The notes under the pieces: model-generated
Told to the model about the DNA's origin: nothing
Database searches by the model: none
What the model saw: the letters and a program-made list of their open reading frames with translations, nothing else
In this document: one piece after another, positions 14,834 to 46,300 of the stretch
Layout of the letters: every line of letters starts with the position of its first letter
Numbering within the stretch: position 1 is the stretch's first letter
Assembly: GCA_964360855.1 (NCBI GenBank)
Contig: CAYHXV010000003.1
Span: 1-62,808, forward strand
DNA from: an uncultured Candidatus Saccharibacteria bacterium
GTDB lineage: Bacteria; Patescibacteriota; Minisyncoccia; Phycocordibacterales; Phycocordibacteraceae
Reading direction: 5' to 3'
DNA length: 62,808 nt
Translations under genes and position numbers: made by a program

Positions 14834-14835
14834 GT

Positions 14836-18203: not shown

Positions 18204-18235
18204 CGCAGGAGAATCCTTTGTCGTAGTATTGATCA

Positions 18236-19884: not shown

Positions 19885-19926
19885 ACAGGACCGGTCTGTC
19901 TGACTATACTGACTAGAATCACTGCA

Positions 19927-28102: not shown

Positions 28103-29146
28103 ATGAAGTACCATCGCCAGATGAAAGGGCTAGGAAATACAACGATATTGGTATGTGGCGGAGCCGGATTTATCGGGTCTAATTTCATACGCCTGGTGCT
28201 TAGTTCGTCTAAAGTCACCAGGGTGGTGTGTCTTGATGCGCTCACGTATGCAGGGAACAAGGAGAACCTTAAGGGGTTGCCGAAGGACAGATTTACCTTT
28301 GTTCAGGGTGACATTACTGACAGAAAGATGGTTGAGAAGATACTAAAGAAACACCAACCCTCACACGTCATAAATTTTGCTGCAGAGTCTCACGTCGACC
28401 GCAGTATCCATAATGGTGCAGAGCCATTTATTCACACAAACGTGCACGGAACGGTGGTACTCCTTGAGGCACTACGCGCGCAGACAAAAAATCTGAAGAA
28501 GTTTGTGCACGTAAGCACCGACGAGGTGTACGGAAGCCTCCCGCTGAACGCCAGAAAAAAATTCACTGAGTCGTCACACCTGGCACCAAATTCCCCGTAT
28601 GCTTCATCAAAAGCCGCATCTGATTTGGTGGTGAAGTCTTTTTTTGCGACCTACGATATGCCACTGGTCACCACGCGGTGTTCAAATAACTATGGGCCAT
28701 TTCAGCATCCGGAGAAGCTTATCCCGTATTCCATACTGCGCCTTGGGGAAGGAAAGCCAATAGCGCTATACGGAGACGGCAAATATGTACGTGACTGGAT
28801 ACATGTTGAGGATCACTGCTCGGCACTTCTATTGGTAATGAAGGACGGTACACCAGGGGAGGTATATAACATTGGCGCAAATGACGAAACAGACAACCTT
28901 TCACTCGCTACGTGGCTCGTGAAGATCTTTGAGAAGAATGCCAAGGACGCCATTAGCTTTGTAAAGGATCGCCCAGGCCACGATCGTCGGTATGCTATCG
29001 ATGCATCTAAGATAAGGAAGGAATTGGGCTGGGAACCGAAACACTCATTTGCTACGTCATTTGCGAGCACCGTCGAGTGGTACCGAGAAAACACGGCGTG
29101 GGTAGCGCGAGCACTCGCTCGTGGCGCTAACAATACACACATATGA
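28103..29146 (+). CDS. rmlB: dTDP-glucose 4,6-dehydratase
   Basis: GGAGFIGSNF; DALTYAG; NFAAESHVDRSI; VSTDEVYG; PNSPYASSKA; RCSNNYGP; DRPGHDRRYA. Confidence 0.95.
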   Translation: MKYHRQMKGLGNTTILVCGGAGFIGSNFIRLVLSSSKVTRVVCLDALTYAGNKENLKGLPKDRFTFVQGDITDRKMVEKILKKHQPSHVINFAAESHVDRSIHNGAEPFIHTNVHGTVVLLEALRAQTKNLKKFVHVSTDEVYGSLPLNARKKFTESSHLAPNSPYASSKAASDLVVKSFFATYDMPLVTTRCSNNYGPFQHPEKLIPYSILRLGEGKPIALYGDGKYVRDWIHVEDHCSALLLVMKDGTPGEVYNIGANDETDNLSLATWLVKIFEKNAKDAISFVKDRPGHDRRYAIDASKIRKELGWEPKHSFATSFASTVEWYRENTAWVARALARGANNTHI

Positions 29147-29868
29147 AAGGCGTAATACTTGCAGGAGGACTTGGCACGCGACTTTCTCCACTCACCAAAA
29201 TAACCAACAAGCACTTGTTGCCGGTGTATGACAAGCCAATGATTATGTATCCGCTCGAGACGCTGAAACGTTCCGGTATTAAAGAGATTATGATTGTGTG
29301 TGGGCGCGAACACGCCGGTCACTTTATGCAATTCCTGGGTTCGGGAAAGGAGCACGGACTGAATTTGTCGTATGCGCTCCAGGACACAAACAATGGTGGT
29401 ATTGCAGATGCACTTTCGTATGCGGAGAAGTTTTCTGAAGATGAGCCGGTGGCAATTATTCTCGGGGATAATCTTTTTGAAAAAGATTTCAAGAAGGAGG
29501 TTGCGGCCTTCAAACGCGGCACCTCAGTTTTCTTTAAGAAAGTGTCGGATCCGAAGCGCTTTGGCGTCCCAGTTTTTTCTAAGGACGGAAAGAAGGTGCT
29601 TAGGGTGGAGGAAAAACCCAAGATACCAAAATCAACATACGCCCAAGTTGGCTTCTATATCTGCGACGCGACCGCCTTTGCGCGTATTAAGAAATTGGTC
29701 CCGTCAGGCCGTGGCGAGCTCGAGATGACTGATCTCATAAACAGCTATCTCGTGGACAGCGTGCTATCGCACTCCTTTGTGAAGGGAAAATGGCTTGATG
29801 CAGGTACCTTTGATTCCTTGCTCGAGGCTGCTGATTTTTATAGAGCGAAAGAGAAAAAGAAGCTATGA
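29143..29868 (+). CDS. rmlA: Glucose-1-phosphate thymidylyltransferase (short form)
   Basis: GVILAGGLGTRLSPLT; NKHLLPVYDKPMI; LGDN; SGRGELEMTD; WLDAGT. Confidence 0.9.
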   Translation: MKGVILAGGLGTRLSPLTKITNKHLLPVYDKPMIMYPLETLKRSGIKEIMIVCGREHAGHFMQFLGSGKEHGLNLSYALQDTNNGGIADALSYAEKFSEDEPVAIILGDNLFEKDFKKEVAAFKRGTSVFFKKVSDPKRFGVPVFSKDGKKVLRVEEKPKIPKSTYAQVGFYICDATAFARIKKLVPSGRGELEMTDLINSYLVDSVLSHSFVKGKWLDAGTFDSLLEAADFYRAKEKKKL

Positions 29869-30410
29869 CAGAACAGCTTTTTCAGGTACAAGACTTAGCG
29901 CTCACTGGTGTCAAACTACTGGTACCAAATATACGAGCAGATGAGCGCGGCTTTTCCGCAAACGTGTATAATGCAGAACTCTTTGCAGAACTCGGGGTGC
30001 CTAGTGTTTTTAAGGAGGACTTCATATCATATTCAAAAGAGAACGTTTTGCGCGGCTTTCATTTTCAGCGGGCTCCTCATATGCAGGACAAGCTGGTGCG
30101 TTGCTCTCGGGGGAGCGTGCTCGACGTAGCTGCTGACTACAATCCCACGTCTCCCACATACGGACAATCAGTCTCAGTTGAACTTTCGGGAGACTCGCAA
30201 GCGTTCCTGTTTATTCCCGGTAAGTACGCCCACGCATTTTATGTGACAAGTGAAGAGGCAATGATGGAGTATAAACTCAGTGACACGTACTACCCTGAAT
30301 TGGTTGGGGGGGTGTGTTTCGATGATCCGGTACTTTCAATAGAGTGGCCAACCAATTCCCCCATAACATCTGTGCAGGATAGTTCATGGGCGCCCCTTCC
30401 CCCAGTATGA
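29865..30410 (+). CDS. rmlC: dTDP-4-dehydrorhamnose 3,5-epimerase
   Basis: DERGF; SKENVLRGFHFQ; QDKLVRC; IPGKYAHAF. Confidence 0.92.
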   Translation: MTEQLFQVQDLALTGVKLLVPNIRADERGFSANVYNAELFAELGVPSVFKEDFISYSKENVLRGFHFQRAPHMQDKLVRCSRGSVLDVAADYNPTSPTYGQSVSVELSGDSQAFLFIPGKYAHAFYVTSEEAMMEYKLSDTYYPELVGGVCFDDPVLSIEWPTNSPITSVQDSSWAPLPPV

Positions 30411-31228
30411 ATCAGATATTAATTACAGGAGGGGAAGGGGTTCTGGGGTCTTATTTTGACTTCGGAATTCGTATGGGCCAGAAAGAGCTTGACATTACAG
30501 ATCTGAACACTGTCTTGAAAGTTTGTGAGAACATACAGCCAAAGATCGTCATCCATACTGCGGCACTAACCGACCTGTCCGTATGCGAGACGAATCCTGA
30601 GAAGGCGTATTTTGTAAATGCAGTAGGAACATACAATATTGCCCTGGGCGCTCGTGCAGTTGGTGCAAAAGTAGTTTACGTATCAACCTCTGATGTCTTT
30701 GACGGCACCGGAAGCGAACCGTATGCCGAGAGCGACATCCCAAATCCTGTCAGCGTCTACGGGCACTCAAAATATCTTGGCGAGCTTGCTCTTAGAAGTT
30801 TACTCAAAGAGTACCTGATCGTCCGTGTATCGTGGATGTTTGGCGGAGGCCCCACGAAGGACTCTAAATTTGTTGGAAAAATCCTCAAGCAACAAAACAC
30901 ACCTGAAATACGAGCGGTGAATGACAAGCGAGGCTCGCCCTCGTGGGGAAAAGATGTTGCCAAAAGTATACAAACGCTCATAGAGCAAAACCAATCTGGC
31001 ATACACCACCTTGGGGGCGGGGTAGCAACCAGGTACGAGATGGCGCAAGCGATAGTATCGGCTGTTGGCTGGAACACGAAAGTCGTGCCCGTAGATTCGT
31101 CAGAGTTTTTTTCTGCGTATCCAATTAGCACAAACACCAGCATGTCTTCTTCCGTACCACAGCGTCCCTGGAAAGAGGCACTTGCACAGTACCTTGAAAC
31201 AGAATGGAAAGATGCACCCACGCTATGA
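30407..31228 (+). CDS. rmlD: dTDP-4-dehydrorhamnose reductase
   Basis: ILITGGEGVLG; IHTAA; STSDVFDG; YGHSK; directly after rmlBAC. Confidence 0.88.
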   Translation: MNQILITGGEGVLGSYFDFGIRMGQKELDITDLNTVLKVCENIQPKIVIHTAALTDLSVCETNPEKAYFVNAVGTYNIALGARAVGAKVVYVSTSDVFDGTGSEPYAESDIPNPVSVYGHSKYLGELALRSLLKEYLIVRVSWMFGGGPTKDSKFVGKILKQQNTPEIRAVNDKRGSPSWGKDVAKSIQTLIEQNQSGIHHLGGGVATRYEMAQAIVSAVGWNTKVVPVDSSEFFSAYPISTNTSMSSSVPQRPWKEALAQYLETEWKDAPTL

Positions 31229-33359: not shown

Positions 33360-35267
33360 ATGGAAAGCCAAAACATAAAAAGAGATATTGTGCTCTTAAC
33401 TGAAGTCAGCCACATTGATGTGCTTGAGAGCTTTCTTCAGCAGCACCCAGAAATAGACCAACAGACGATTTGCCGCGTCGCTCTTGATAGGGAGGTCGAG
33501 TTAGTGCTCGAGGATAGACACACACCCTTTGTGTCGGGGAGAGGTCTTCGATTACCCAACACAGATACGGTCGTTTTTGGTGAGCAGTGGACTGCGAGAA
33601 TACTTGAAAGTGCCCGCTTGTCCTTTTTTTCATACCGTGGCGTCACTATCTCACAGGTATATTTCCTATCTTTTCAAAGCTGGCTTACCCGACTGCTGTA
33701 CTACGTCGATATGGTCGTGTCGGCTGTCGACCAGCACCCTGATGTTCGACGAATCATTGCATTTGCCCCCACTGCAGGCGGACCCTCACTCGGAAGTATA
33801 CTTGCCACCCATAAGGTAGAGGCTTATGTGGACGCAGTACAGATAGTCGCGAAGAAGTACAGCATACCAGTGCTCTTGGTACCGGCTCCAGCACGCGAGC
33901 CTATTAAGAACAGCCCGCAACTCTTTTACATAAAACGGGCTCTATTTAGTATCGTGCTTAGTGTTCTGAATTGCGGTGTCCGGATTACGCAGCGACCTAG
34001 AAAGATCAGAATACTTGCCAGTGACTATTGGAAAAACCTTGCACCGTACGTTCAAGCAATTCCTTCCGCAGAGATAGTTCTCGTTGATCGGGTAGAGGCA
34101 TTCAGGGCGGGACCCAAAAACATATGGAACTACCGAATGCAGTTCCTCCACACGACTGCTTCCGCTGAAGATCCTACACGTGCGCAGACGGCAGAGCGCT
34201 TTTTGCGCGAATGGAAAGCCGTTAAGGCTTCGCACGAGCTCGATGTGTTTGTGTTCCGAGGAATCTCGCTCGCCCCACTGCTTGAAGCTGCACTTGATAG
34301 CCTAGTCCCCGAGGTGGGTACAAACCTTCTTCGAGATATTGATGACACGCACTCGTTTCTTTCTCGCGTAAAGCCAGACATTGTCATACTTCGTTCAACC
34401 GTGAGTACCCAGACTCACTTTGTTGTACTCGCACACGTTGCTCGCGCACAAGGGATTCCGTCGATTGAGATGCAACACGGACTTGAGTACTACGGACCCG
34501 GCTCAGTTAGCTTGCGGCACCGAGCAGAGTTCACCGGCGTGTACGGGAAACTAACGGTAGAACAAATGAAAGCGGTGAAAGACACCGCAACCACCGCGGT
34601 GATTGTGGGATCGCCACGATTTGACGTGTACGCTGCTTCCGCAACAAAAGAGAACTTCGCACAGGTGCCAGGTGCGTTCAACATACTGTGCGTTGCTCCC
34701 GCAGTTGATCCTGGAGGCGATTCTCCTGATACGTATGATACGGAGGAATACTACGCGGCGGTTGCTTCAGCTGCTCGTTCCATACCGAACGTGACTGTTA
34801 CCGTTAAGTTTCGCCCAGGTCCTAACCGAGACTCGTTTGTGGAACGAACACTCGAAACGGTGTTTACAGGCATTCCGTATACCATTGCCCAGTTCGAATC
34901 ATTTGCGGAGTTGTACCCAAAAGCAGATATCGTTATCTCGTGCTATTCGACCGCCCTCATTGAAGGACTTCAGTGTGGCAAACCACTGGTATATCTTGGC
35001 CTCTCTCCCGCCCAAAGTATGATGGGACGCCACCATTTCACCCTGTACGAGGCCGCTGGCGCACTGCGAGTCGCAACGTCCTCAAAAGAGCTCGATGAAT
35101 GTATGGCAGAGCTCGGAAGAGACCCGGGAGCCCGGGAGCGACTGTCGGCAGGCGCAACTTCATTCCTGGGCCAGGAGTACTCTTTTGATGGACATTCAAG
35201 CGAGCGAGCAGCCAGCTTGGTGGCAGAATTGGTCGAAAGGCGTCGGGCGAGGCGCGGGGTAAAGTAG
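33360..35267 (+). CDS. Surface-carbohydrate biosynthesis protein, probable GT-B fold
   Basis: SIEMQHG; GSPRFD; VKFRP; SCYSTALIEG; located just before the NeuB module. Confidence 0.6.
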   Translation: MESQNIKRDIVLLTEVSHIDVLESFLQQHPEIDQQTICRVALDREVELVLEDRHTPFVSGRGLRLPNTDTVVFGEQWTARILESARLSFFSYRGVTISQVYFLSFQSWLTRLLYYVDMVVSAVDQHPDVRRIIAFAPTAGGPSLGSILATHKVEAYVDAVQIVAKKYSIPVLLVPAPAREPIKNSPQLFYIKRALFSIVLSVLNCGVRITQRPRKIRILASDYWKNLAPYVQAIPSAEIVLVDRVEAFRAGPKNIWNYRMQFLHTTASAEDPTRAQTAERFLREWKAVKASHELDVFVFRGISLAPLLEAALDSLVPEVGTNLLRDIDDTHSFLSRVKPDIVILRSTVSTQTHFVVLAHVARAQGIPSIEMQHGLEYYGPGSVSLRHRAEFTGVYGKLTVEQMKAVKDTATTAVIVGSPRFDVYAASATKENFAQVPGAFNILCVAPAVDPGGDSPDTYDTEEYYAAVASAARSIPNVTVTVKFRPGPNRDSFVERTLETVFTGIPYTIAQFESFAELYPKADIVISCYSTALIEGLQCGKPLVYLGLSPAQSMMGRHHFTLYEAAGALRVATSSKELDECMAELGRDPGARERLSAGATSFLGQEYSFDGHSSERAASLVAELVERRRARRGVK

Positions 35268-35346
35268 CTACCTCATAGCCAAGAGAAGGGTTATAGTGAG
35301 TATATTCCGCTTGTGGCAGAGATTTTTCTATAGGACTTCATTACAT

Positions 35347-36111
35347 ATGGCAAATAAATACGACCTTCTTAATAAAAACGTACTCATTACTGGCGCAGCT
35401 GGGCAAATAGGTAGGGAGCTTGTGCGTGCATTCATTGAAAGTGGCTCACACGTCTATGCCGCCGACTTGGCTGCCACGCCGGATTCTGGACTCACAGACG
35501 CAGTGGGAAAACACACGGACCTCTTCACCTATGTCAGTGGGTCTGTCACAACGGAGACTTCAGTTACAGAAATCTTTGCGGAGATTAAAAAACCAATAGA
35601 CGTGTTGGTTAATTGCGCTGGTATAGGAGTATATACAGCGTTCGAAAAAAGAACAGAGGAAGAACTCGATAGTGTATTCGATACAAATCTGAAGGGCACC
35701 ATTCTAATGTCCAAGCACGCCGCTGAAGGAATGAAAGAACAGAAGCAAGGAACTATCATAAATGTTGCCTCTATATATGGCGTGACAACACCCGACTTTC
35801 GTATATATGGCGATTCAGGCAGAAACAGCTCAGAAATTTACGGAGCAACCAAGGCCGGCATTATTCACTTCACCAAGTACATTTCTGCCTATTTAGCCCC
35901 ATATGGTATTACGGCTAACAGCATTTCTCCTGGTGGCGTCTTCAGAAAGCAGGACCCAGCCTTTGTGGCGAATTACGAGAAAAAGACACCGCTTGGAAGA
36001 ATGGCCACTCCGGAGGATTTGGTAGGAACAGTCCTATTTCTTGCGTCATCAGACGCACGATACATAACCGGTCAAAACATCTCTGTGGATGGAGGATTTA
36101 CTGTATGGTAA
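35347..36111 (+). CDS. Short-chain dehydrogenase/reductase (SDR), PtmA-like context
   Basis: TGAAGQIG; VNCAG; YGATK; SPGGV; TPLGRMA; SVDGG; ATG 35347 preferred. Confidence 0.88.
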   Translation: MANKYDLLNKNVLITGAAGQIGRELVRAFIESGSHVYAADLAATPDSGLTDAVGKHTDLFTYVSGSVTTETSVTEIFAEIKKPIDVLVNCAGIGVYTAFEKRTEEELDSVFDTNLKGTILMSKHAAEGMKEQKQGTIINVASIYGVTTPDFRIYGDSGRNSSEIYGATKAGIIHFTKYISAYLAPYGITANSISPGGVFRKQDPAFVANYEKKTPLGRMATPEDLVGTVLFLASSDARYITGQNISVDGGFTVW

Positions 36112-38513
36112 AGGAACAAACGAAAAAGCCACACGTACATATCATAGGGGCGGGAATGAGTGGGCTTGCAACAGGACTTCGGCTCTCCGAACTCGGTATT
36201 CCTGTGTCTATATACGAAAAGAGTTCCGGTGTCGGTGGTATGGCGAGCTCCTTTGCTTGGGGAGAATTTGCCTATGTCGATCATGGGCCACATATTTTCC
36301 ACACCCCAGACGAACGGCAGGCGCATATTTGGGAATCAGAATACGGTGATCTGTTCGCAAAGAATGAATTTTGGGGCAAGAACGTAAGGGGTGAGAAATT
36401 TGACGAGCTCTACGACTATCCACTTTCCTATGATTCGCTCGAATCCTTTCCTAAGGAGAAGCGAGAAAAAATAATGACAGAACTCTCCTGTCTAAGTGAA
36501 TCAAAGAAAGCTGAAGCAAAGAGTTACAAAGAGTACGTGCGGGAGTTGGTGGGCCCGACCTTGATGGAGATGTTTTTCATACACTACCCGCAAAAGCTCT
36601 GGCGAGTTACCGTCGATGAGATGACTGCCAACTGGGCGCCCAAGCGCGTAAACTTCCATCGAGAAAAAGGACACTTTCATATGGGTCAGTGGAGTGCCGT
36701 AGGGAAGTACGGCGCAGGTAGTGTTATGGAGCGAATGGCGGAGAAATTTACCCAGAACGGTGGCGAGCTACACCTGGATAGTGCACTTACTGAGATTGAA
36801 ACAGCGGGAACCACTCTAACAGGGTTGGTGTTTGGTGAGAAACGAGTCACCCTGTCGCCAGAGGATTTCGTAGTCTCTACTATGCCGCTGCCGCGGCTTG
36901 CTGAGTTGTTTGGTGTGACGAACGAGCTCAAGTACCGGGGCGCAAAGCTCATTTTCGTTGCACTTAATAAGCCACAGGCTATAGAAGGGCAGCCGAGCTT
37001 CCTATACTACGATAACCCGGACATCATCTTTCACCGTGTTAGCGAACAAAAGAAGTTTTCAGCCTTTGGTTTTCCCTCAGACAAAACCCTTCTGACACTT
37101 GAAATAGCGTATACGCGAGGAGACGAGCGTGATGTACAGCCAGAGCAAGAACTCATAGAAATAGCAATTCGAGACTTGAACACCGTTGGACTCGCTAAAC
37201 CAGGGGAAGTGTACGACACCAAACTCGTTTCACTTCCGTATGTGTACCCAATGCTTGCAAAAGGTAGTGAAGAAGCGCTTGCGCGCGTGCGCGGTGCGGT
37301 TGCCTCGTACCAACAAGTATTTCTTATTGGCACCGGGGGAGACTATCACTACGCAGACCTGCAGATTCTTGCCGTGAAGGGGCGTGACCTCGCAGACCGC
37401 ATTGCGGGGGTTAGTGACGAAGAAGAGCATCTGGTTCGTGGAAACGGGTATAGCGAACACTTTGCAAACGAAGTGGTACTAGGAACACATACGGTTGCAT
37501 ACGGAAAGCCAGCGTTTGTTATTGCTGAAATTGGTCTAAATCATAATGGGTCACTTGAACTTGCAAAGAAACTTATTAGCGCCGCAAAGCTCTCGGGAGC
37601 GTCAGCCGCAAAGCTTCAGAGTTTCAGTGCAGGAAGTAGACTCTCTCAAAAAGTTAAAGAGAATAGATACGCGGAAGAATTGATCGATACCGAGGAAGGA
37701 ATGTTTTCAATGTTTAAGCGACTAGAGCTTACTGAGTCAGAGCACGCAGAATTATTTGCCTATGCACAAAGCATCGATATGGTCCTGTTCTCTACGCCGT
37801 TCGATATCGAAAGTCTAGAACTGCTCGAGTCGTTTGGTGCGCCGTTTTACAAAATCGCATCAATGGACGTGGTGAACCTTCCGCTCGTGCGAACGGTAGC
37901 AGAAACAGGTAAGCCCATAATCATGTCTACCGGTATGTCCAGTCTGGCTGAAATTGAAGACGCTGTTGAGGTAATTCAATCCACCGGCAACAAAAACCTC
38001 ATACTATTGCAGTGTGTCTCATCGTATCCTGCCGTACCGCAAGACATGAACCTTGCTGCTATGAAGACGCTTCACAAGGCATTTGGGGTGCCGGTAGGGT
38101 TTTCGGACCACACCATAGGACTCATTGCTTCGACCGTTGCGCTCTCGCTCGGTGCCACCGTTATTGAGCGCCACTTCACTCTGGACCGTTTTATGGAGGG
38201 TCCTGATCACATACTTTCTTCAGAGCCTCACGAACTTACTGAGTTGGTAGAACTCAGTCGTCTCGTTCCTCTTATACGAGGTACTGGTGAGAAGCGTGTA
38301 CAGGGGAGTGAAATAGAAACTATGAATCGTTTCAAAAAGGGCTTGTACGCAAAGGTAGATATACACACGGGTGATACGATTACCGAAACGATGCTTACGA
38401 TTAAGGGTCCAGGAGGAGCGGTACTTCCGAAGTTCCAGTCGGACGTAGTAGGAAAAACTGCCCGTATAGATATTCCAGCAGACCACCCCGTGAAATGGGA
38501 CCATTTCCAATGA
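36105..38513 (+). CDS. Fusion of an FAD-dependent oxidoreductase (UGM/PPO-like) with a NeuB/SpsE-type nonulosonate synthase and SAF domain
   Basis: N-terminal IIGAGMSGL..E....GG..DHGPHIF; from ~37460 FVIAEIGLNHNG, FSTPFD, KIAS, IMSTGM, LQCVSSYP, GFSDHT, IERHFTLD, GPDH; C-terminal SAF-like KGPG. Confidence 0.88.
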   Translation: MVKEQTKKPHVHIIGAGMSGLATGLRLSELGIPVSIYEKSSGVGGMASSFAWGEFAYVDHGPHIFHTPDERQAHIWESEYGDLFAKNEFWGKNVRGEKFDELYDYPLSYDSLESFPKEKREKIMTELSCLSESKKAEAKSYKEYVRELVGPTLMEMFFIHYPQKLWRVTVDEMTANWAPKRVNFHREKGHFHMGQWSAVGKYGAGSVMERMAEKFTQNGGELHLDSALTEIETAGTTLTGLVFGEKRVTLSPEDFVVSTMPLPRLAELFGVTNELKYRGAKLIFVALNKPQAIEGQPSFLYYDNPDIIFHRVSEQKKFSAFGFPSDKTLLTLEIAYTRGDERDVQPEQELIEIAIRDLNTVGLAKPGEVYDTKLVSLPYVYPMLAKGSEEALARVRGAVASYQQVFLIGTGGDYHYADLQILAVKGRDLADRIAGVSDEEEHLVRGNGYSEHFANEVVLGTHTVAYGKPAFVIAEIGLNHNGSLELAKKLISAAKLSGASAAKLQSFSAGSRLSQKVKENRYAEELIDTEEGMFSMFKRLELTESEHAELFAYAQSIDMVLFSTPFDIESLELLESFGAPFYKIASMDVVNLPLVRTVAETGKPIIMSTGMSSLAEIEDAVEVIQSTGNKNLILLQCVSSYPAVPQDMNLAAMKTLHKAFGVPVGFSDHTIGLIASTVALSLGATVIERHFTLDRFMEGPDHILSSEPHELTELVELSRLVPLIRGTGEKRVQGSEIETMNRFKKGLYAKVDIHTGDTITETMLTIKGPGGAVLPKFQSDVVGKTARIDIPADHPVKWDHFQ

Positions 38514-39538
38514 AACAGCTAGAAAAAACTGTGGAGCACATTTGTACAAGCGCCAAGGGGCGCGCTACGGCGTTTGTTATTGGTAATACATCGGATGTGT
38601 TTGTGGAGGGGCATATGTACAGCACCCCACTGCGCGAGACTGGGGAGCTCGTGTACGCTGGCGTAATTGTGCGAGACGTAGAGACGGCAGAAGAAGTGGC
38701 GCGATGGGTGGACGGAAAAGTCGACTATGTATTTGTGGACGACGAAAAGAAAATTAGGAGCATGTACTATGGCCCAGACGATGTGGGAAATATAGAAAAA
38801 AGTGTTCGAGGAATTATTTCCACCTCTACGCTACTTACCTACAAGGGAAATGACCTAACGGTGGAGGCCGTAGATACCCTTATTGGAAGTATTGTGGGAG
38901 AGGTGAGCGGAAAGAGAGTTGCACTCATTGGAATGGGCAATCTAGGGTCAAAAGTAGCGCTCAAGCTCGTTGAGCGCGGCGTGCATATTTCTGCATTTCG
39001 AAGAAACAAACAAAAGCTAGATGCTATTGTTGCGGGACTAAACGAGATCAAGCCAGCGGACACTCATGCGCGCGTTATCGCGATGGAGAATATTGCGCAC
39101 GCCTGTGCAAACGCCGATATTATTATTGGCACAACAAACGAGAAAAGCGTAATAACTATGGATGATGTGCAGTGTGCGAAGCCCGCAGTACTGCTCCTTG
39201 ATGTGGGGAAGGGCTGTTTTGCGCAAGAGGTGACCGAGGACTCTTCGCGCATTGTGTATCGTGTAGACGTTTCCATAGTCCAGAAACAGGCCTTTCTCGC
39301 ACTCGTACACACAAAAAGTCACTACTCAAAACAACTAGGGAGACGAAGCATCCCGGAAGCAGAAGCGACCCTTGTGTCTATCGGTATTTTTGGCAGAAAA
39401 GGGGAAGTTATTGTAGACGATATAGAGCACCCAACGAGTATTATTGGTATTTCAGCAGGGGACGGCACCCTCGAACCTAGTAGCGACGAAGTGCTCAAAA
39501 AAATAAGCGATTTGAAGTCAACGTTTGGAATTCTATAA
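38510..39538 (+). CDS. Hypothetical protein with a C-terminal NAD(P)-binding Rossmann domain
   Basis: GKRVALIGMGNLG; ADIIIGTT; LLDVG; N-terminal ~120 aa not recognised. Confidence 0.6.
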   Translation: MKQLEKTVEHICTSAKGRATAFVIGNTSDVFVEGHMYSTPLRETGELVYAGVIVRDVETAEEVARWVDGKVDYVFVDDEKKIRSMYYGPDDVGNIEKSVRGIISTSTLLTYKGNDLTVEAVDTLIGSIVGEVSGKRVALIGMGNLGSKVALKLVERGVHISAFRRNKQKLDAIVAGLNEIKPADTHARVIAMENIAHACANADIIIGTTNEKSVITMDDVQCAKPAVLLLDVGKGCFAQEVTEDSSRIVYRVDVSIVQKQAFLALVHTKSHYSKQLGRRSIPEAEATLVSIGIFGRKGEVIVDDIEHPTSIIGISAGDGTLEPSSDEVLKKISDLKSTFGIL

Positions 39539-39543
39539 ACACT

Positions 39544-40293
39544 ATGAAAACGTACGCAATTATTCAGGCTCGTATGGCCTCGACAAGACTCCCGGGGAAA
39601 ATACTCCTCGACATAGCTCCAGGCACGACTGTGCTTGAGTGTATGCTCTCTCGTGTGGCCGCCTGTACAGAGATTGATACTACTATCGTAGCGACAACAA
39701 CGAGCGAGAAGGACCTCGTACTTATCGATTTTTTAGAGAAACACAAGCTGCCCTATTTTGTTGGTGATGAGAACGATGTACTAGACCGTTACTACCAAAC
39801 AGCTCTCGCGTTTGGGGCCAAGAGTGGAGATGTAATCGTACGCATGACATCCGACTGTCCACTCATTGACCCATCGGTTGCCGACACCACCATACGGTTT
39901 TTTAAGGATGGGGACTTTGAGTATGCTTCTAACAATCTGGAACCGTACACCTACGCTGATGGTATGGATACCGAAGTGTTTTCTTTTGACGCACTGGAAC
40001 GTGCGTGGAAAGAATCCACTATCCCCGCCCACCGCGAGCACGTCACCTTCTATATGTGGAAGAATCCTGAACTATTCAGAATAGGGCAATACGTTAACCC
40101 CAAAGAAGGGCAGGTAGCGTACCGACTCACTCTCGACTACCAGGAGGATCTGGATGTCCTTTCTGATGTGTACCAGCACCTGTACCCACAGAATCCACTA
40201 TTTACTATGGAAGATATTTTGGGCTATCTGAACGCACATCCGGAAGTGAAAGCTCTTAATACTGACGTAGAGCGCAACGCGTCTTGGAAATAG
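39544..40293 (+). CDS. SpsF-like cytidylyltransferase (CMP-sugar synthetase family)
   Basis: AIIQARMASTRLPGKIL; GDENDVLDRY; VRMTSDCPLIDP; REHVT; RLTLDYQED. Confidence 0.88.
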   Translation: MKTYAIIQARMASTRLPGKILLDIAPGTTVLECMLSRVAACTEIDTTIVATTTSEKDLVLIDFLEKHKLPYFVGDENDVLDRYYQTALAFGAKSGDVIVRMTSDCPLIDPSVADTTIRFFKDGDFEYASNNLEPYTYADGMDTEVFSFDALERAWKESTIPAHREHVTFYMWKNPELFRIGQYVNPKEGQVAYRLTLDYQEDLDVLSDVYQHLYPQNPLFTMEDILGYLNAHPEVKALNTDVERNASWK

Positions 40294-40336: not shown

Positions 40337-41653
40337 ATGAAACGAACCGGTCAGAGACTCTGGGAAAAGGCAAAAAAACTCATACCAGGAGGTAATCAAT
40401 TGTTGTCAAAGCGGGCAGAGATGTTCCTGCCAGGGGCGTGGCCAGCATATTTTAGTAAGGCCAAGGGTCCCTATATATGGGACTTAGACGGCAATAAATA
40501 TCTTGATATGTCGATTATGGGTATTGGCGCCTGTCCTCTTGGCTACGCGGACCCCGATGTTAACAAAGCGGTCACGGCAGCAGTCGGACGTGGGTCTATG
40601 GCTACTTGGAACACTCCTGACGAGGTGGAACTCGCTGAATTACTAACCAAAATACACCCGTGGGCTGATATGGTCCGCTATGCTCGCACGGGGGGAGAAT
40701 CAATGGCAATTGCGGCGCGTATAGCGCGTGCACACACGGGACGGGATACCGTTGCTTTTTGTGGATATCATGGCTGGTCTGACTGGTACCTCGCAACAAA
40801 CTTAAAGGATCCGAAAGGACTGAATGAACACCTACTGGCAGGTTTGGAGCCCAAGGGTGTTCCGGAAGGACTTCGAGGAAGTATCTTGCCATTTCGCTAT
40901 AATCGTATCGACGAGCTCGAAGCCCTGGTGAAGCAAACGAAAGGAAAGCTCGCTGCCATTATTATGGAGCCAATACACGGTGAAGAACCGAAAGACAATT
41001 TTCTTCAGAAAGTCCGAGCCATTGCGACACAAACAGGAGCAGTACTGGTGTTCGATGAAATATCCATAGGATGGAAGGAAACAGTCGGGGGTTCGCACCT
41101 TATGTATAAGGTGAACCCTGATATTGCAGTATTCAGTAAGGGTATGAGCAACGGATATCCCATGGCCGCCATTATTGGGAAAAGGAAGGTAATGGAGTCG
41201 GCTCAGGACACATTCATCTCGAGTACGTACTGGACTGAGAGTATCGGACCCGCGGCGGCACTTGCCACAATTAAGAAAATAAAACGCCTTAATGTCCCCA
41301 GGCATCTCATACGTATTGGTACGCTAGCGAACTCTGGACTGAAACGTCTCTCCAAAAAACACGGAATTAACGTGCAGATTGGAGGCACGGCAACCATGGG
41401 TTTTTTTTCTTTTGAGTACGGTCCTCTAAGCAATGCAGTGAAAACATTATTCACTCAAGAAATGCTAAAGAGGGGAATTCTTGCTGCCAACAGATTCTAT
41501 CCTTCCTATGCCCACTCAGAAAAACACATCAAGCACTACCTGCAGGTTATGGATAAAGTGTTCGCTCTTATGAAAGACGCCATAGATTCTGGAACGGTAG
41601 AAAAGAAACTACAAGGACCCGTCGCACACTCCGGATTCCAGCGCCTCAATTAA
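40337..41653 (+). CDS. Class III PLP aminotransferase (GSA-aminomutase-like)
   Basis: IPGG.Q..SK; WDLDGNKYLD; RYARTGGE; GYHGW; EP; FDEI; FSKGMSNGYP. Confidence 0.88.
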   Translation: MKRTGQRLWEKAKKLIPGGNQLLSKRAEMFLPGAWPAYFSKAKGPYIWDLDGNKYLDMSIMGIGACPLGYADPDVNKAVTAAVGRGSMATWNTPDEVELAELLTKIHPWADMVRYARTGGESMAIAARIARAHTGRDTVAFCGYHGWSDWYLATNLKDPKGLNEHLLAGLEPKGVPEGLRGSILPFRYNRIDELEALVKQTKGKLAAIIMEPIHGEEPKDNFLQKVRAIATQTGAVLVFDEISIGWKETVGGSHLMYKVNPDIAVFSKGMSNGYPMAAIIGKRKVMESAQDTFISSTYWTESIGPAAALATIKKIKRLNVPRHLIRIGTLANSGLKRLSKKHGINVQIGGTATMGFFSFEYGPLSNAVKTLFTQEMLKRGILAANRFYPSYAHSEKHIKHYLQVMDKVFALMKDAIDSGTVEKKLQGPVAHSGFQRLN

Positions 41654-41684: not shown

Positions 41685-42569
41685 ATGGAATTGTCACACA
41701 ACAAGGTTGAAGCCCTCAAGCAATTTGCTGACCACTTGGTGCGCGCACCCAGCTGTAACCTCTGTGGAGGCATGGAACGGAGCGTGTGGGCGGTGTCCGA
41801 TCCCATTACCGCCTACGAGTGTACGGCGTGTGGCCTGGTCTATCACGACCCACAACTCACTGACAAGGGCAGGGAGCTTTTCTATGCGAGCGGGTATTTT
41901 GAGATGCAAAACGACCCTGCAGATTCTGCGCTTCGCGACGTCATGTATGGAGTGGAAATTGCATTCTTGGAAAAGCACCGAGCGAGCGGCGTGTTGCTTG
42001 ACGTAGGGTGCGGTGGCGGGTTCTTGCTGAATGCATTTAGTAATTCGTGGGAAAAACATGGTATTGAGTTTGATGCTCGTGCCGTTGAACACGCACGCGA
42101 GGTGCTGAATCTCGATGTCGCACAAGGAGAAGTGACGAGTGTGTCGTTTCCGGAGGGAACCTTCGATGTCATTGTGCTGCGGGGCGTCATCGAGCATATG
42201 GCAACACCCCGAGAAATGATCGAGCACCTATTGCCGTGGCTCAAGAAGGGGGGGCTACTGTATATTACCTCCACCCCAAACACCGAAAGTCTGTGCGCAG
42301 AACTGTATCGCGAAAAGTGGAACCTATTTACTGCCGATCATCAAATACATTTCTCCAAGTCCAATCTGGTGAGCTTCTTTAAGGGGATCGGAATGTCTCT
42401 GGCTGATGCTGGGTACCTGTATCTTGAGACACCCTATGCCAACGAAGTGGCCGACTATCGAAAAATAGTTACTGACGCAAAGCTCATCGGTAGCGGGAAC
42501 GGTAGCGAAGTTATTTCTTCCCCCGCATTCTATGGAAATATGCTCAGTCTCATCTTTCTGAAAGATTAA
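41685..42569 (+). CDS. Class I SAM-dependent methyltransferase with zinc ribbon
   Basis: CNLC...CTAC; LLDVGCGGG; VIEH; STPN. Confidence 0.85.
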   Translation: MELSHNKVEALKQFADHLVRAPSCNLCGGMERSVWAVSDPITAYECTACGLVYHDPQLTDKGRELFYASGYFEMQNDPADSALRDVMYGVEIAFLEKHRASGVLLDVGCGGGFLLNAFSNSWEKHGIEFDARAVEHAREVLNLDVAQGEVTSVSFPEGTFDVIVLRGVIEHMATPREMIEHLLPWLKKGGLLYITSTPNTESLCAELYREKWNLFTADHQIHFSKSNLVSFFKGIGMSLADAGYLYLETPYANEVADYRKIVTDAKLIGSGNGSEVISSPAFYGNMLSLIFLKD

Positions 42570-42575: not shown

Positions 42576-44342
42576 ATGCGTATCCCCGAAACACTTGCAT
42601 TGCTCGCCAAGACCTACCACCGGTACGGCTGGCATATTTTGGCGCTCGCGCTGCTCGGGATGTTCAGTGCCATTCTGGAGGGTATTGGTATCACCGTGGT
42701 GATACCACTTCTTTCATTCTTTGTGGGTGGAAACGCACCGGTTGATTTTATTTCAAAAGCAGTGCAGTCACTCTTTGCATTTGTTGGAGTCCCGTTTACC
42801 TTTAGGTACCTCCTTGGATTTATTCTCGCGCTCTTTCTTGTGCGCGCAGTCACCGTCGTTGCTTTTGGGTATATTCGTGGCAGAATTTCTGCAGACTTTC
42901 TCCATATTGAGAGCAAAGAACTGCTCAAGCGGACACTCCGTGCCTCGTGGCCGTTCTTGCTCAAACAGAAGATTGGCTCACTGCAAAACACGCTCGTGCG
43001 AGACATTCAGTGCTCTACCGGCCTGTTGGGTATCATCGCCCAAATCATCCAGTCGTTCGGAGGATTCTTGATGTACTTGATCATTGCGATAAACATTTCT
43101 CCCTCCATTACGTTCTGGACCATCGGGGGAGGAGCGGTACTTATGTTGTTTGCCCGACCCCTCATTATCAAATCGCGAAAGGTGGGGGAGCAGCTGGTGC
43201 TAGTAGAAAAAGCATACGCCCATTTCTTGTCGGAACATATCATAGGTATGAAGTCAGTGAAGGCCGCTGGTGTTGAGCAGCCAGCACTCCAGAGTGGGAA
43301 CGAAGAGCTGGACTCACAGCGAAAACTTTCCTTACGCCTTGCGTTCATTCGTTCAATTGGCTCGAGCTTCTTTCAGCCGTTCACACTTCTGTTCGTAGTG
43401 GTGTTATTTGCACTTACGTCAAAGTCACCTGACTTCAGCATCGTCTCCTTTATTGCGGCACTATACTTGATTCAGAAAATCTTTACCTACCTTGAATCAG
43501 GACAGAATGCACTCCACAGCTTTAGCGAAATGGTGCCGTACGCCAAGAACCTGGTAAATTTCAAGAAAATTTCTGACGAGTACAAGGAGGAAAAAATCAC
43601 TGGAGAGAAGACGCTTATTTTTGAGAAAGAGCTTGCATTCAACAATGTCTCGTTTTCCTATGAGCCGGATTCAGCCACACTCTCTGATGTGTCATTCGTT
43701 CTCCCGCAAGGAACCACCATGGGACTCATTGGGCCTTCTGGTGCGGGCAAGACCACTGTTGCAGATATTCTCCTGCGGTTGTTTGAACCAACCTCAGGTT
43801 CGGTGACCATCGACAACGAGCCCATAAGGAACATTCGTATAGATGAGTGGCGGCAGTACATAGGGTATGTTTCTCAGGACGTCTTCCTGCTCAACGCAAG
43901 TGTTTCTGAAAACATCAGGTTCTATAGTTCAAACGTTACTGACGCTGATATAGAGGAAGCTGCACGCAAGGCGAATATTTATGACTTTGTTATGTCTCTC
44001 CCCCAGGGATTTAATACTGCCGTAGGGGACCGAGGGGTGCTGCTTTCGGGCGGACAGCGACAGCGCATCGTGCTTGCGCGGGCACTGGCAAAACGGCCCA
44101 AGCTCCTCATTCTGGACGAAGCAACAAGCGCCCTCGATTCGGAGTCGGAGAGACTCATTCAAGAGGCTATACGAGCACTGCACGGGTCTATTACGGTGTT
44201 TGTCATTGCGCACCGTTTGAGCACCATTGAATCAGTAGACACTCTGTTGGTACTAGAAGAGGGCAAACTCACGGAATCGGGCACACCAGTGCAGTTGCGG
44301 AGCACCGCGACCTCCTATTTTGCGAAGTACAGGGGGGCTTGA
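42576..44342 (+). CDS. ABC exporter, fused permease/ATPase (MsbA/PglK/Wzk-like; likely glycan flippase)
   Basis: Six-TM N-terminus; GPSGAGKTT; LSGGQRQR; ILDEATSALD; IAHRLST. Confidence 0.9.
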   Translation: MRIPETLALLAKTYHRYGWHILALALLGMFSAILEGIGITVVIPLLSFFVGGNAPVDFISKAVQSLFAFVGVPFTFRYLLGFILALFLVRAVTVVAFGYIRGRISADFLHIESKELLKRTLRASWPFLLKQKIGSLQNTLVRDIQCSTGLLGIIAQIIQSFGGFLMYLIIAINISPSITFWTIGGGAVLMLFARPLIIKSRKVGEQLVLVEKAYAHFLSEHIIGMKSVKAAGVEQPALQSGNEELDSQRKLSLRLAFIRSIGSSFFQPFTLLFVVVLFALTSKSPDFSIVSFIAALYLIQKIFTYLESGQNALHSFSEMVPYAKNLVNFKKISDEYKEEKITGEKTLIFEKELAFNNVSFSYEPDSATLSDVSFVLPQGTTMGLIGPSGAGKTTVADILLRLFEPTSGSVTIDNEPIRNIRIDEWRQYIGYVSQDVFLLNASVSENIRFYSSNVTDADIEEAARKANIYDFVMSLPQGFNTAVGDRGVLLSGGQRQRIVLARALAKRPKLLILDEATSALDSESERLIQEAIRALHGSITVFVIAHRLSTIESVDTLLVLEEGKLTESGTPVQLRSTATSYFAKYRGA

Positions 44343-44426
44343 AGCGCACCCCAAAGAAAAGATTTGTGGTTGTGGTATAGTGCTCGCGGCGTTTGATCTT
44401 TGAGACGCTAGCAAACAGAAGCAGCA

Positions 44427-46220
44427 ATGCTTCGCACAGACACAAAGGAGCCACTGATGGCTGCGAAACGCTTCGTCCTCGTGGCTCAGTATTCATCCAT
44501 TGAGCCGCTCGGAATCCTTCACCTCTCCGGACTTGTCCGGGATGCAGGGTGGGACTGCAAGGTCGTCCTCATCAAGGGTGACGACTACGCGGAACTCTAC
44601 GACACCGTACAGAATTGGCGGCCCGACATTGTCGGGTTTCAGATCTGGACAGGCAATCACCTGGCCGCGTTTAGGGCCTGCAACACCGTGCGTGGGCTTG
44701 GCGTGCCGCTCGTTATTGGCGGACCGCACGCGACTTACTTCTTCGAGGAGTGCGCAAAGCACGCAGACTGGGTGGTGCAAGCCAGCGGGTTTGGATTCCT
44801 TCAAGACATTCTTGGCGGTGTGCTGCCTCACGGCGTTCACTTCAGTCGTGAAGGGCGATCTGAACCCTTCCCTCTGCCTGACCGCGACCTCCTCTACGAG
44901 ACGTACCCCGGGTATGGTGAAAGCCCTATCAAGAGTATGTTTGCGTCGGTTGGGTGTCCGTACAAGTGCACCTACTGTTACGCGCCGGTGTTCAACCGGA
45001 TGCATAACGGGTTCTTGCTTACGAACCGCCCTGTCGACGATCTCGTGCAGGAAGCGAAAGCCATACTACGACGCTGGCCCCTCTCACTCGTCTATTTCCA
45101 AGACGACGTGTTTGGGTTCAATCCGAAGTGGCTTGGTGAATTCGCGCAAAAATGGAAGACAGAGGTGGGTGTGCCGTTCCACGCGCAGATGCGTCTCGAG
45201 ATGACGCAGCACGCGGGTGGTGACAAGCGACTCGACCTCTTTCGGGAGGCTGGGTGCAGCGGCATAACGCTCGCGATTGAGTCAGGGAATGCGTTCCTGC
45301 GAGACCATGTGCTCTTCCGGCACATGCCGGACGAACTCATTCTCGAAGGATGCCGAAAGATTATGGACCGGGGTATGACGCTTCGGACCGAACAAATACT
45401 TGGCGTGCCGTTCTCGAATCTTGAGACCGAACTGCAGACCCTTGACCTGAACGCGCGTATTAACCCAACGCTGGCGTGGACGAGCATCCTATCTCCCTAC
45501 GGGGGCACGGCAATGGGTACCATCTCTTCGAACTACGGTCTCTATCGTGGCAACAACGACGATCTTCTCGATAACTTTTTCGAGGCGAGCGTCCTGCGGC
45601 ACATCGATGGAGGCCCGCGCGATATCGAGCGGATGGTTGCCATGGTCGGCGCAACACCCAAAGACGAAACACTGCTCGCCTTTCGGACAGAGCAACGATC
45701 GGCTACGGAAGTGTCGGTATTCGATGCAGAGGGAACTCTGCTCGGGTCCGTCACTCACCTGACTCCGAAAGACAACGAACGCTACTGTCGTGATCTCGTG
45801 CGACTGCAGCGACTCTTTAATTTCTTGCCGAAATTTCCTGATGCGGCACTGCTCGGGCGCACACTCGCGCTTATGCCGCAGCAGGAGTGGACGTGGGAGG
45901 GAATTGGGCGGCAGATTGAGCAGCACCTGGTTTCTGCGAACGTGGAGAACCTTTCATCCTGGAAGGACGCCATCGCCGCGGAAATGGGGTATGGCTCAGT
46001 CCTTGAGCTTCCGGGGCCCATTGCTTCGAACCCGTGGCTCTTCTGTGTCGTGCCCGCTGGCGGGCACCTCGCTCGACGTGCGTTAGAGGTGGGTGTATTT
46101 GACCCCCTCCTCTCGACCGAAGAAACGCTCGACCGACTCGGCACCCTCGGGCGCCGGCACCTGTTCGAGTACGGTCTGTACCAGATTCAAGTGGGAAGCA
46201 GTCCCATATGCTCCCGCTAG
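44427..46220 (+). CDS. Cobalamin-binding radical SAM protein (class B-like) with C-terminal extension
   Basis: EPLGILHL; IGGPHAT; GCPYKCTYC (CxxxCxxC); QDD.F; AIESG; start may be ATG 44457; TGgTATAGT promoter element upstream. Confidence 0.85.
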   Translation: MLRTDTKEPLMAAKRFVLVAQYSSIEPLGILHLSGLVRDAGWDCKVVLIKGDDYAELYDTVQNWRPDIVGFQIWTGNHLAAFRACNTVRGLGVPLVIGGPHATYFFEECAKHADWVVQASGFGFLQDILGGVLPHGVHFSREGRSEPFPLPDRDLLYETYPGYGESPIKSMFASVGCPYKCTYCYAPVFNRMHNGFLLTNRPVDDLVQEAKAILRRWPLSLVYFQDDVFGFNPKWLGEFAQKWKTEVGVPFHAQMRLEMTQHAGGDKRLDLFREAGCSGITLAIESGNAFLRDHVLFRHMPDELILEGCRKIMDRGMTLRTEQILGVPFSNLETELQTLDLNARINPTLAWTSILSPYGGTAMGTISSNYGLYRGNNDDLLDNFFEASVLRHIDGGPRDIERMVAMVGATPKDETLLAFRTEQRSATEVSVFDAEGTLLGSVTHLTPKDNERYCRDLVRLQRLFNFLPKFPDAALLGRTLALMPQQEWTWEGIGRQIEQHLVSANVENLSSWKDAIAAEMGYGSVLELPGPIASNPWLFCVVPAGGHLARRALEVGVFDPLLSTEETLDRLGTLGRRHLFEYGLYQIQVGSSPICSR

Positions 46221-46227
46221 ACTCTAG

Positions 46228-46258
46228 AAGGGTCCGTCCACCAGGACGGGCCCTTTTT
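46228..46258 (+). terminator. Intrinsic terminator after the radical SAM gene
   Basis: AAGGGTCCGTCC-ACCA-GGACGGGCCCTT followed by TTT. Confidence 0.8.
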
Positions 46259-46300
46259 GTATGTTCCACAAGTAACGACAGAGGGGTATACTCTCCCCAT

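Follow-up and report, generated by a model that had tools for sequence, protein, structure and literature searches.

Sialic, legionaminic and pseudaminic acids belong to the nonulosonic acids, a group of key surface sugars. To our knowledge, all known bacterial routes to these compounds convert a nucleoside diphosphate (NDP)-sugar into a free sugar by means of a dedicated hydrolase or hydrolysing epimerase, condense this sugar with phosphoenolpyruvate (PEP), and activate the acid with cytidine monophosphate (CMP). The condensation is carried out by NeuB-type synthases, which join PEP to a free open-chain aldose. Here, we analyze a gene coding for an 802-amino acid (aa) protein in a 62,808-nucleotide (nt) stretch of DNA (hereafter the window; contig CAYHXV010000003.1, assembly GCA_964360855.1) from an uncultured Candidatus Saccharibacteria bacterium, in which a flavoprotein related to UDP-galactopyranose mutases (UGMs) is fused to a NeuB-type synthase.

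The UGMs of K. pneumoniae (1wam/3gf4), T. cruzi (4dsg) and A. fumigatus (3ute) share with the fusion a three-domain fold, a flavin adenine dinucleotide (FAD) Rossmann motif, a His loop, a uridine pocket, and a clamp of two Arg and two Tyr residues. Their reaction is redox-neutral: N5 of the reduced flavin displaces UDP from C1, and catalysis proceeds via a ring-opened flavin-iminium (PMC7662398, PMC4192007). In the T. cruzi enzyme (TcUGM), Tyr395, Tyr429 and Arg327 grip the UDP phosphate throughout catalysis, and His62, Gly61 and Arg176 are given as catalytic; Arg327 is common to all UGMs, and an Ala mutant of this residue in K. pneumoniae UGM (KpUGM) is dead (PMC4192007). The fusion differs from UGMs in that identity is only 16-21%, a third Arg (TcUGM Arg423, K. 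pneumoniae Arg343) is replaced by Thr, and the domain is joined to a synthase that requires a free sugar, so that we propose a net release of NDP rather than the ring contraction of UGMs.

The second half resembles the NeuB/PseI/LegI synthases (1xuu, 8h2c, SpsE 1vli) in its TIM barrel followed by an SAF domain, its His/His metal site, and its PEP-binding Lys, Ser and Glu residues. It is nevertheless only 31-35% identical to NeuB, PseI and SpsE with no clear affiliation, and differs by a Gly in place of an Arg and by an N-terminal extension of 450 aa. The pathway role that we propose for this extension, conversion of an NDP-sugar to a free aldose, would be that of the hydrolysing 2-epimerases NeuC/LegG (Epimerase_2) and of the UDP-sugar hydrolase PseG, which have an unrelated fold, whereas covalent chemistry at flavin N5 is proposed for the fusion. 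Finally, the PRK07208-type family, annotated as 'FAD-dependent oxidoreductase' or 'hypothetical protein', provides the best NCBIfam models for the N-terminal domain and carries UGM-type residues; its members are standalone, and the fusion scores well below its equivalog cutoffs.

A recurrent two-domain protein

The fusion is encoded on the forward strand (36105..38513) by a single uninterrupted reading frame with an ATG start, as given by the open reading frame (ORF) listing. It comprises a UGM-like FAD domain (36105..37415, residues 1-437, delimited by Foldseek, profile and residue conservation), a disordered linker (37416..37454, residues 438-450, GVSDEEEHLVRGN), a PEP-condensing TIM barrel of NeuB type (37455..38294, residues 451-730, from Pfam, PDB and Foldseek matches), and an SAF (antifreeze-like) domain (38343..38507, residues 747-801, from Pfam and alignments). 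The flavin half carries the GxGxxG sequence GAGMSG at about residues 14-20 and DHGPHIF at residues 59-65, and is matched by the Pfam families NAD_binding_8 (residues 13-70, E 3.3e-13), Amino_oxidase (residues 18-380, 59.3 bits, E 6e-16), and GLF (PF03275), the UDP-galactopyranose mutase family (residues 157-340), the latter passing its cutoff of 26.3 narrowly with 30.0 bits. The second half matches Pfam NeuB (PF03102) over the whole model (residues 490-730, 285.7 bits, E 4e-85, model positions 1-241 of 241), followed by SAF (residues 747-801, 35.5 bits, E 1.5e-8). An AlphaFold2 model built from an alignment of 55 family members has a mean predicted local distance difference test (pLDDT) score of 89.7 and a predicted template modelling (TM) score of 0.83. 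Three segments have a pLDDT below 50, and residues 438-450 are the one lying between domains. The first-pass annotation of the window had already described the continuous 802-aa flavoprotein::NeuB+SAF fusion and had put its junction at ~37410-37460, within which the low-confidence linker indeed falls.

We searched 5.8 billion proteins and obtained 327 matches at E <= 1e-10, the best 120 clusters of which (at 90% identity) were inspected. All but two of these 120 (118) are near-full-length proteins of 741-841 aa with both a flavin-family and a NeuB Pfam domain. Such a search for the same architecture had been proposed by the first-pass annotation, which had also named reads showing a stop or misjoin at the junction among the findings that would refute it. 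The 118 homologues are 39-82% identical, come from NCBI, ENA, JGI and Logan assemblies, and have the linker at the same place, and the DNA across the junction shows no homopolymer run, stop or other oddity. Since the same architecture recurs in so many independent assemblies, a misjoin or frameshift is excluded for practical purposes, and the 802-aa fusion is a genuine, recurrent two-domain protein.

Patescibacteria predominate among the named sources (Kaiserbacteria, Paceibacterota, Parcubacteria, Curtissbacteria, and metagenome-assembled genomes (MAGs) labelled 'Saccharibacteria'), which further include an Omnitrophica genome, a Flammeovirgaceae MAG, and the gammaproteobacterium Aliiglaciecola sp. 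2_MG-2023. In databases, the fusion is called 'FAD-dependent oxidoreductase' or 'sialic acid synthase SpsE/protoporphyrinogen oxidase'. Searches of the literature (8.3 million full texts) yielded neither a characterization of the fusion nor any description of the PRK07208 family or of a flavoenzyme in nonulosonic acid synthesis, and a large phylogenetic survey of nonulosonic acid synthases makes no mention of the fusion. SfmA of Shewanella was considered as a relative and rejected, as it is a 290-aa protein with a NeuB domain only and is unrelated to the fusion. Both domains come from known families, and the fusion is already present in databases under generic names; it represents a distinct and widespread NeuB clade joined to a UGM-like enzyme.

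Relationships of the two halves

Sequence searches of the PDB match the flavin half mostly to UGMs (best E 1.3e-10). When the structural model is submitted to Foldseek, NeuB and PseI come on top through the C-terminal half, and nearly all of ranks 11-50 are taken by UGMs of trypanosomal, fungal, mycobacterial or corynebacterial origin, with E values of about 1e-21 to 3e-23 and TM scores on the target of 0.68-0.80. A profile of eleven N-terminal domains finds T. cruzi UGM as its best PDB match (E 5.7e-21, positions 6-415), while amine oxidases, LSD1, L-amino-acid oxidases and carotenoid desaturases are matched only over positions ~4-67, which correspond to the dinucleotide-binding motif. The first-pass annotation had read the domain as a flavoprotein of UGM or protoporphyrinogen oxidase (PPO) type. 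Its UGM part is borne out by fold, profile and clamp residues; its PPO part is not, the first PPO-type Foldseek entry appearing at rank 38 and the NCBIfam model proto_IX_ox scoring 18.9 against a cutoff of 97.85. On fold and profile evidence we rejected a PPO or amine-oxidase identity. With the NCBIfam UGM equivalog TIGR00031, the domain scores 35.8 bits against a cutoff of 303.75.

Conservation was counted in an alignment of 55 fusion sequences reaching down to 40% identity with the window protein, and TcUGM numbering was read at an offset of +3 from chain 4dsg, checked on His62 and Arg327. The glycines of the FAD Rossmann motif (G15, G17 and G20) are near-invariant, and each residue of the His loop (D59, G61, P62, H63 and H66) is present in 55/55 sequences. 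H63, together with G61 and P62, aligns with His62/Gly61 of TcUGM, and the loop also aligns with G58-P59-H60...H63 of KpUGM, so that the bacterial UGM motif GPHIFHT is retained. The diphosphate clamp is kept as well: R181 (54/55) aligns with TcUGM Arg176, and R311, Y381 and Y416, each in 55/55, align with Arg327, Tyr395 and Tyr429, respectively. The uridine pocket FFxxYxxKxW aligns with 'ffkgytikqw' of 1wam and is nearly as constant (F157 in 55/55, F158 in 52, Y161 in 51, and W166 in 55), its counterparts in KpUGM being F151, F152, Y155 and W160.

With the flavin domain as the only query, an exhaustive HMMER search gives 4013 relatives at E <= 0.001. The closest are the ~800-aa fusions themselves; standalone relatives of ~430-490 aa are mostly at ~35% identity or below, and keep the UGM-type residues (R311 in 92/92, Y381 in 90/92, H63 in 89/92, and R181 in 78/92). 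The best NCBIfam models are of PRK07208 type (NF005547 and NF005548), with ~155-160 bits against equivalog cutoffs of 380-389. Judged by its sequence, the flavin domain belongs to a large uncharacterised UGM-like clade, and its retention of the UGM diphosphate site and His loop points to redox-neutral covalent N5 chemistry on an NDP-sugar.

The NeuB half is intact. Its PDB matches, all at 31-35% identity, are led by PseI (8h2c, E 3e-55) and the NeuB of N. meningitidis (NmNeuB; 1xuu, E 3.5e-48) and include Leptospira NeuB (6ncs) and B. subtilis SpsE, and Foldseek superposes it on 1xuu and 8h2c with TM scores on the target of 0.88-0.91. Histidines H669 (in an SDHT motif) and H690 (ERHFT), present in 55/55 fusions, align with the two metal-binding His of NmNeuB, His215 and His236 as numbered by way of the alignment to 4ipi. 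Residues E475, K503, Q505, K583, S586, S608, Y641, E688 and D701, which line up with PEP/sugar positions, are likewise invariant. Subfamily placement, made by pairwise identities and hidden Markov model (HMM) cutoffs, assigns this half to no characterised subfamily: it scores 347.4 with NeuB_NnaB (TIGR03569) against an equivalog cutoff of 399.65, and 303.0 with PseI (TIGR03586) against 340.25, and the C-terminal domains of the fusions share 48-85% identity among themselves as compared to <=35% with NmNeuB, PseI, or the standalone NeuB paralogue of one Parcubacteria locus (L020).

A difference lies in the SAF domain, where the fusions have an invariant loop K767-G768-P769 (KGPGG). In all 55 sequences Gly768 occupies the column of NmNeuB Arg314, fixed by alignment to 4ipi, the structure of the R314A mutant. 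An Arg stands at this position in NmNeuB (KRPGNG), PseI (VRPSFG), and the standalone paralogue of L020 (IRPGHG); in NmNeuB and PseI this residue touches the 2-acetamido group of the substrate. The replacement of this Arg by Gly fits a substrate without a 2-acetamido group.

The first-pass annotation had also singled out an LQC sequence in the synthase as a distinguishing mark. The sequence is indeed there (Q636), and was rejected as a subfamily marker: the position is His in 40 and Gln in 15 of the 55 fusions, Lys in C. jejuni PseI, and Gln in the canonical paralogue of L020, and it is distinct from the metal ligands. The broader expectation of a non-canonical ulosonic acid fares better. Such a product is very likely, given that the NeuB half falls below both equivalog cutoffs, that Gly replaces the acetamido-binding Arg, and that the fusion lies in a conserved context that is not of Neu, Pse or Leg type.

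Gene contexts, proposed reaction and alternatives

Gene contexts were counted in ten Pfam-annotated regions (the window and nine further homologues, from at least four phyla), and the genes of the window were also compared by BLAST with 19 related loci. A CTP_transf_3 cytidylyltransferase is present in 10/10 contexts, a short-chain dehydrogenase (SDR) next to or near the fusion in eight, a sugar-1-phosphate nucleotidyltransferase in eight, and a class-III aminotransferase in six. No Epimerase_2 (NeuC/LegG) or PseG was detected by Pfam in any of the ten, nor any PseB/C/H/G-type gene around the fusion in the window. We consider it highly probable that the fusion is a bifunctional enzyme and that it belongs to a conserved pathway to a CMP-nonulosonate other than the Neu, Leg and Pse pathways.

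The most compact example is a five-gene island (L021) flanked by housekeeping genes, with Zip and FUR on its upstream side and RuvX downstream. It consists of a PseF-like cytidylyltransferase, an RmlA-like protein, RmlB (388 bits against a cutoff of 365), the fusion, and a 286-aa SDR of 4-reductase/epimerase type, with RmlA and RmlB directly abutting the fusion. All its ORFs are assigned, and there is no space for a further one. On the way from glucose-1-phosphate to a CMP-sugar, only the removal of NDP from the dTDP-6-deoxyhexose is left without an enzyme. In the window itself, an rmlB-rmlA-rmlC-rmlD set (28103..31228, forward strand, identified by Pfam, with RmlB at 447.9 bits against an NCBIfam cutoff of 365.1) lies upstream of the fusion and is the candidate source of substrate, as it would supply a dTDP-6-deoxyhexose (L-rhamnose); rml genes are also found upstream of the fusion in L001, L002 and L009. 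In L017, L018 and L024 there are sets of a GHMP kinase, a nucleotidyltransferase, a DegT protein and a radical-SAM protein, and the NDP-sugar may differ between lineages.

The absence of NeuC, LegG and PseG from all contexts suggests that what the flavin domain supplies is the NDP-sugar hydrolase step, and not a ring contraction or epimerisation in itself. In the reaction that we propose, a dTDP-6-deoxyhexose loses its NDP through covalent catalysis at flavin N5, and the sugar passes in open-chain form to the NeuB domain; we put the probability of this at a little under one half (about 0.48). The flavin domain would bind a pyrimidine NDP-sugar, most likely the dTDP-6-deoxyhexose made by upstream rmlABCD genes; N5 of the reduced flavin would attack C1 and expel the NDP to form a ring-opened flavin-iminium adduct; and the iminium, rather than closing to a furanose that takes the nucleotide back, would be hydrolysed to give NDP and a free acyclic aldose. 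The role of a separate NDP-sugar hydrolase or hydrolysing epimerase (NeuC, LegG, PseG) would thereby fall to this domain. The NeuB+SAF part, whose family membership is clear, would condense this aldose with PEP at its His/His metal site to yield a 3-deoxy-non-2-ulosonic acid with a hydroxyl in place of an acetamido group at C5; an acid derived from a 6-deoxyhexose would also be 9-deoxy.

To judge from the neighbouring genes, the SDR, an NAD-binding partner protein, the class-III aminotransferase and a methyltransferase may then tailor the acid, for example by oxidation, transamination and methylation. The Kdo8N pathway of Shewanella, where the oxidase KdnB and the aminotransferase KdnA reportedly act on the finished ulosonic acid, would be a precedent for oxidation followed by transamination after condensation; its enzymes belong to other families and its sugar is C8, so that it serves as an analogy lead only. 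The CTP_transf_3 enzyme would finally make the CMP-sugar for transfer to a surface glycan or, in Aliiglaciecola, to flagellin via Maf. There, the fusion module adjoins a Maf gene and a flagellin gene, and its product is thereby linked to flagellin glycosylation of nonulosonic-acid type. Taken as a whole, the scheme is tentative, and we hold it possible rather than probable: a UGM-type flavin-N5 'NDP-sugar opener' feeding a fused NeuB would constitute a fourth nonulosonic acid route that dispenses with NeuC/LegG/PseG. Its product would be a previously undescribed 9-deoxy sugar that has no acetamido group at C5 and undergoes amination or methylation only once the condensation is complete, and it would decorate patescibacterial cell surfaces as well as flagellin in some marine Gammaproteobacteria.

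Several observations weigh against the removal of NDP by the flavin domain. The third active-site Arg of UGMs (TcUGM Arg423, the Arg of the GRxG motif in bacterial UGMs) is a near-invariant Thr410 in the fusions, so that their active site departs from that of UGMs; one may speculate that loss of the Arg is compatible with nucleotide recapture being no longer needed. At 30 bits, the match to Pfam GLF is weak, and Amino_oxidase scores higher (59 bits). The absence of NeuC and PseG rests on Pfam detection in divergent proteins of the candidate phyla radiation (CPR), and a canonical Pse/Leg-like sub-cluster in L020 is likewise devoid of a Pfam-detectable PseG. A hydrolase could hide among unannotated proteins, of ~430 aa in L017, L018, L022 and L024, and of 635 aa in the window, L021 being the clear exception. 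The rml genes are not adjacent at all loci, so that it is uncertain which NDP-sugar is used, and this could differ from locus to locus. Moreover, no gene is assigned as the source of reduced flavin, and we found no precedent in the literature for net NDP-sugar hydrolysis by a UGM homologue.

An alternative that we regard as unlikely is that the flavin domain is a redox enzyme of amine-oxidase, PPO or dehydrogenase type acting on the sugar or on the finished ulosonic acid, where it would create the keto group for the class-III aminotransferase, or make an aldehyde substrate from an alditol or an amine. Amino_oxidase is indeed its top-scoring Pfam family, databases call it an 'FAD-dependent oxidoreductase', and the transaminase of six of the ten contexts would need a keto or aldehyde substrate; however, UGMs come first in both fold and profile searches, sequence and profile matches to amine oxidases, LSD1 and carotenoid desaturases cover only the first ~60-70 residues, and a simple oxidase would have no reason to retain the invariant UGM-specific diphosphate clamps and His loop. 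Furthermore, the SDR and the further NAD-binding enzyme are already available for redox steps, and the L021 island has no aminotransferase yet retains the fusion. The first-pass annotation had offered redox, ring contraction or epimerisation of the aldose substrate as possible roles of the flavin domain. Action on the sugar before condensation is still the most plausible, whereas redox chemistry sits badly with the preserved UGM site, and ring contraction or epimerisation as such with contexts that have no hydrolase.

The same preserved site could also belong to a true NDP-pyranose/furanose mutase serving a glycosyltransferase, the fusion then ensuring co-regulation or stoichiometry of two sugars of one glycan. 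This would accord with the UGM active-site residues shared by the fusions and the 92 standalone relatives, and with the many glycosyltransferases in the window cluster, but looks distinctly unlikely given that the fusion is kept across at least four phyla, that the closest relatives of the domain are all fused, and that the counterpart of TcUGM Arg423 is replaced. L021 has no glycosyltransferase, and a mutase there would leave NeuB without a supply of free sugar; the missing NDP-sugar hydrolase would also be left unexplained. A catalytically silent domain, acting as an allosteric module that senses nucleotide-sugars or CMP-sugars or as a scaffold for the NeuB dimer, is very unlikely. The nucleotide-binding residues are conserved, and CMP-sugar feedback control occurs in sialic acid pathways, yet flavin-binding motifs and a catalytic His loop that stay invariant in the 55 sequences argue for retained chemistry. 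The chance that the fusion is an assembly or frameshift artefact of two adjacent genes is practically nil: the database entry identical to the window protein is only partial (448 aa on a 3.2-kb contig, P0040, labelled 'Patescibacteria group bacterium'), but near-full-length homologues from independent projects and phyla and the clean junction stand against it.

Neighbouring genes and wider significance

In the window, the genes preceding the SDR are, in order, glycosyltransferases, a GDP-mannose dehydratase/reductase/DegT set, rmlBACD, a GT2 glycosyltransferase, a sugar C-methyltransferase, and an unannotated 635-aa ORF. They are followed, from the SDR on, by the fusion, the NAD-binding protein, the cytidylyltransferase, the class-III aminotransferase, a methyltransferase and an ABC exporter, and then by a B12-radical-SAM enzyme, a Wzy_C+TPR protein, and MurB. 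All window features described below are on the forward strand. The 635-aa ORF (33360-35267) lies between the sugar C-methyltransferase and the SDR, has no match in Pfam, NCBIfam or the PDB, and is conserved only in the closest loci (L001, L002, L009 and L015, at 49-53% identity); its product could be a transferase for the new sugar. The SDR (35296..36111) was identified by Pfam, with PRK09186 as its best NCBIfam model (183 bits), and its stop codon overlaps the start of the fusion (ATGGTAA).

At its 3' end, the fusion overlaps by 19 nt the gene of its most constant partner, an uncharacterised 347-aa NAD(P)-binding protein (38495..39538). This protein lies downstream of the fusion in 9/10 annotated contexts, directly next to it or, in L022, one gene further on. 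BLAST detects it in 18 of 24 loci, and its family has 311 database matches, all unnamed. Its AlphaFold2 model has a pLDDT of 94.5, and its best PDB folds (ornithine carbamoyltransferases, DpaA, MtdA) reach TM scores below 0.5; sequence and profile searches against the PDB returned generic Rossmann matches only. The N-terminal domain has many invariant charged residues (R47, D82, E84, K85, K86, K117 and D120), and there is a GxGNxGxK loop. The protein may represent a new dehydrogenase family, and could be either a tailoring dehydrogenase or the supplier of reductant to the flavin.

Next come the CMP-type (ulosonic acid) cytidylyltransferase (39544..40293; Pfam CTP_transf_3 at 86.9 bits, with weak KdsB-type NCBIfam matches), the class-III aminotransferase of omega type, HemL-like (40337..41653; Pfam Aminotran_3, and NCBIfam PRK06209 at 274 bits against a cutoff of 486), and a SAM-dependent methyltransferase with a putative tailoring role (41685..42569; identified by Pfam and conserved in the closest loci L001, L002, L009 and L010). 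The ATP-binding cassette (ABC) exporter of MsbA/PglK type (42576..44342; Pfam and NCBIfam) recurs near the fusion in other contexts and is likely, from its family, a lipid-linked glycan flippase. Besides this exporter, the stretch 42576-48442 encodes the radical-SAM enzyme, which is of the B12-binding kind, and a Wzy_C protein of 744 aa that resembles O-antigen ligases and PglL and carries C-terminal TPR repeats. Such a set in a Patescibacteria-type genome suggests that a lipid-linked glycan is transferred en bloc to protein or cell wall. The G+C content in the region of the radical-SAM gene is 0.569, as opposed to about 0.48 in its flanks. Further upstream, positions 19000-22163 contain a second 6-deoxy-sugar set, of GDP-perosamine or rhamnose type, formed by an RmlD-like reductase, a GDP-mannose 4,6-dehydratase (450 bits) and a DegT aminotransferase, after which comes a GtrA-like membrane protein. 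Positions 6411-9477, immediately before the glycan cluster, code for a homologue of TrwB/TraG-like type-IV coupling proteins and then for a protein with Lamin-tail and PKD domains.

Other loci carrying the fusion show peculiarities of their own. In L020 (Parcubacteria, 15601-21016), a separate canonical Pse/Leg-like set stands beside the fusion module, with a Polysacc_synt_2 dehydratase, a DegT protein, an aldo-keto reductase, an acetyltransferase, and a standalone NeuB+SAF having the acetamido-binding Arg, which indicates that two nonulosonic acid pathways coexist in one locus. The ~430-aa unannotated family accompanies the fusion in non-CPR-like loci (L017 16424-17704, L018 15980-17305, L022 11370-12650 and L024 14272-16371), is fused to CTP_transf_3 in L024 (699 aa), and is absent from the window. 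L018 also contains a 772-aa class-III aminotransferase (18157-20475) with a LAGLIDADG_3 match between its two Aminotran_3 halves, an insertion that, from this arrangement, looks like an intein or homing endonuclease. In L017 a NeuB::CTP_transf_3 fusion of 587 aa is found (13470-15233), and in L022 a CTP_transf_3::Aminotran_3 fusion of 716 aa (16856-19006). These further fusions suggest a strong tendency to fuse consecutive steps.

The fusion family marks a widespread and unstudied pathway that lacks the hydrolase and in which a mutase-like flavoenzyme is joined to the synthase. Clustered at 90% identity, the family has at least 118 near-full-length representatives, found mainly in the candidate phyla radiation. 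A sequenced strain, Aliiglaciecola sp. 2_MG-2023, carries the gene, and the proposed removal of NDP could be tested with one recombinant protein. If this reaction is true, it would represent a new outcome for flavin N5 covalent catalysis, assign a function to the PRK07208-like clade of UGM relatives, and give a handle on thousands of 'FAD-dependent oxidoreductase' genes in polysaccharide loci. It would also mean that ultra-small episymbiotic bacteria, whose glycobiology is almost unknown, bear a new class of nine-carbon acidic sugars.

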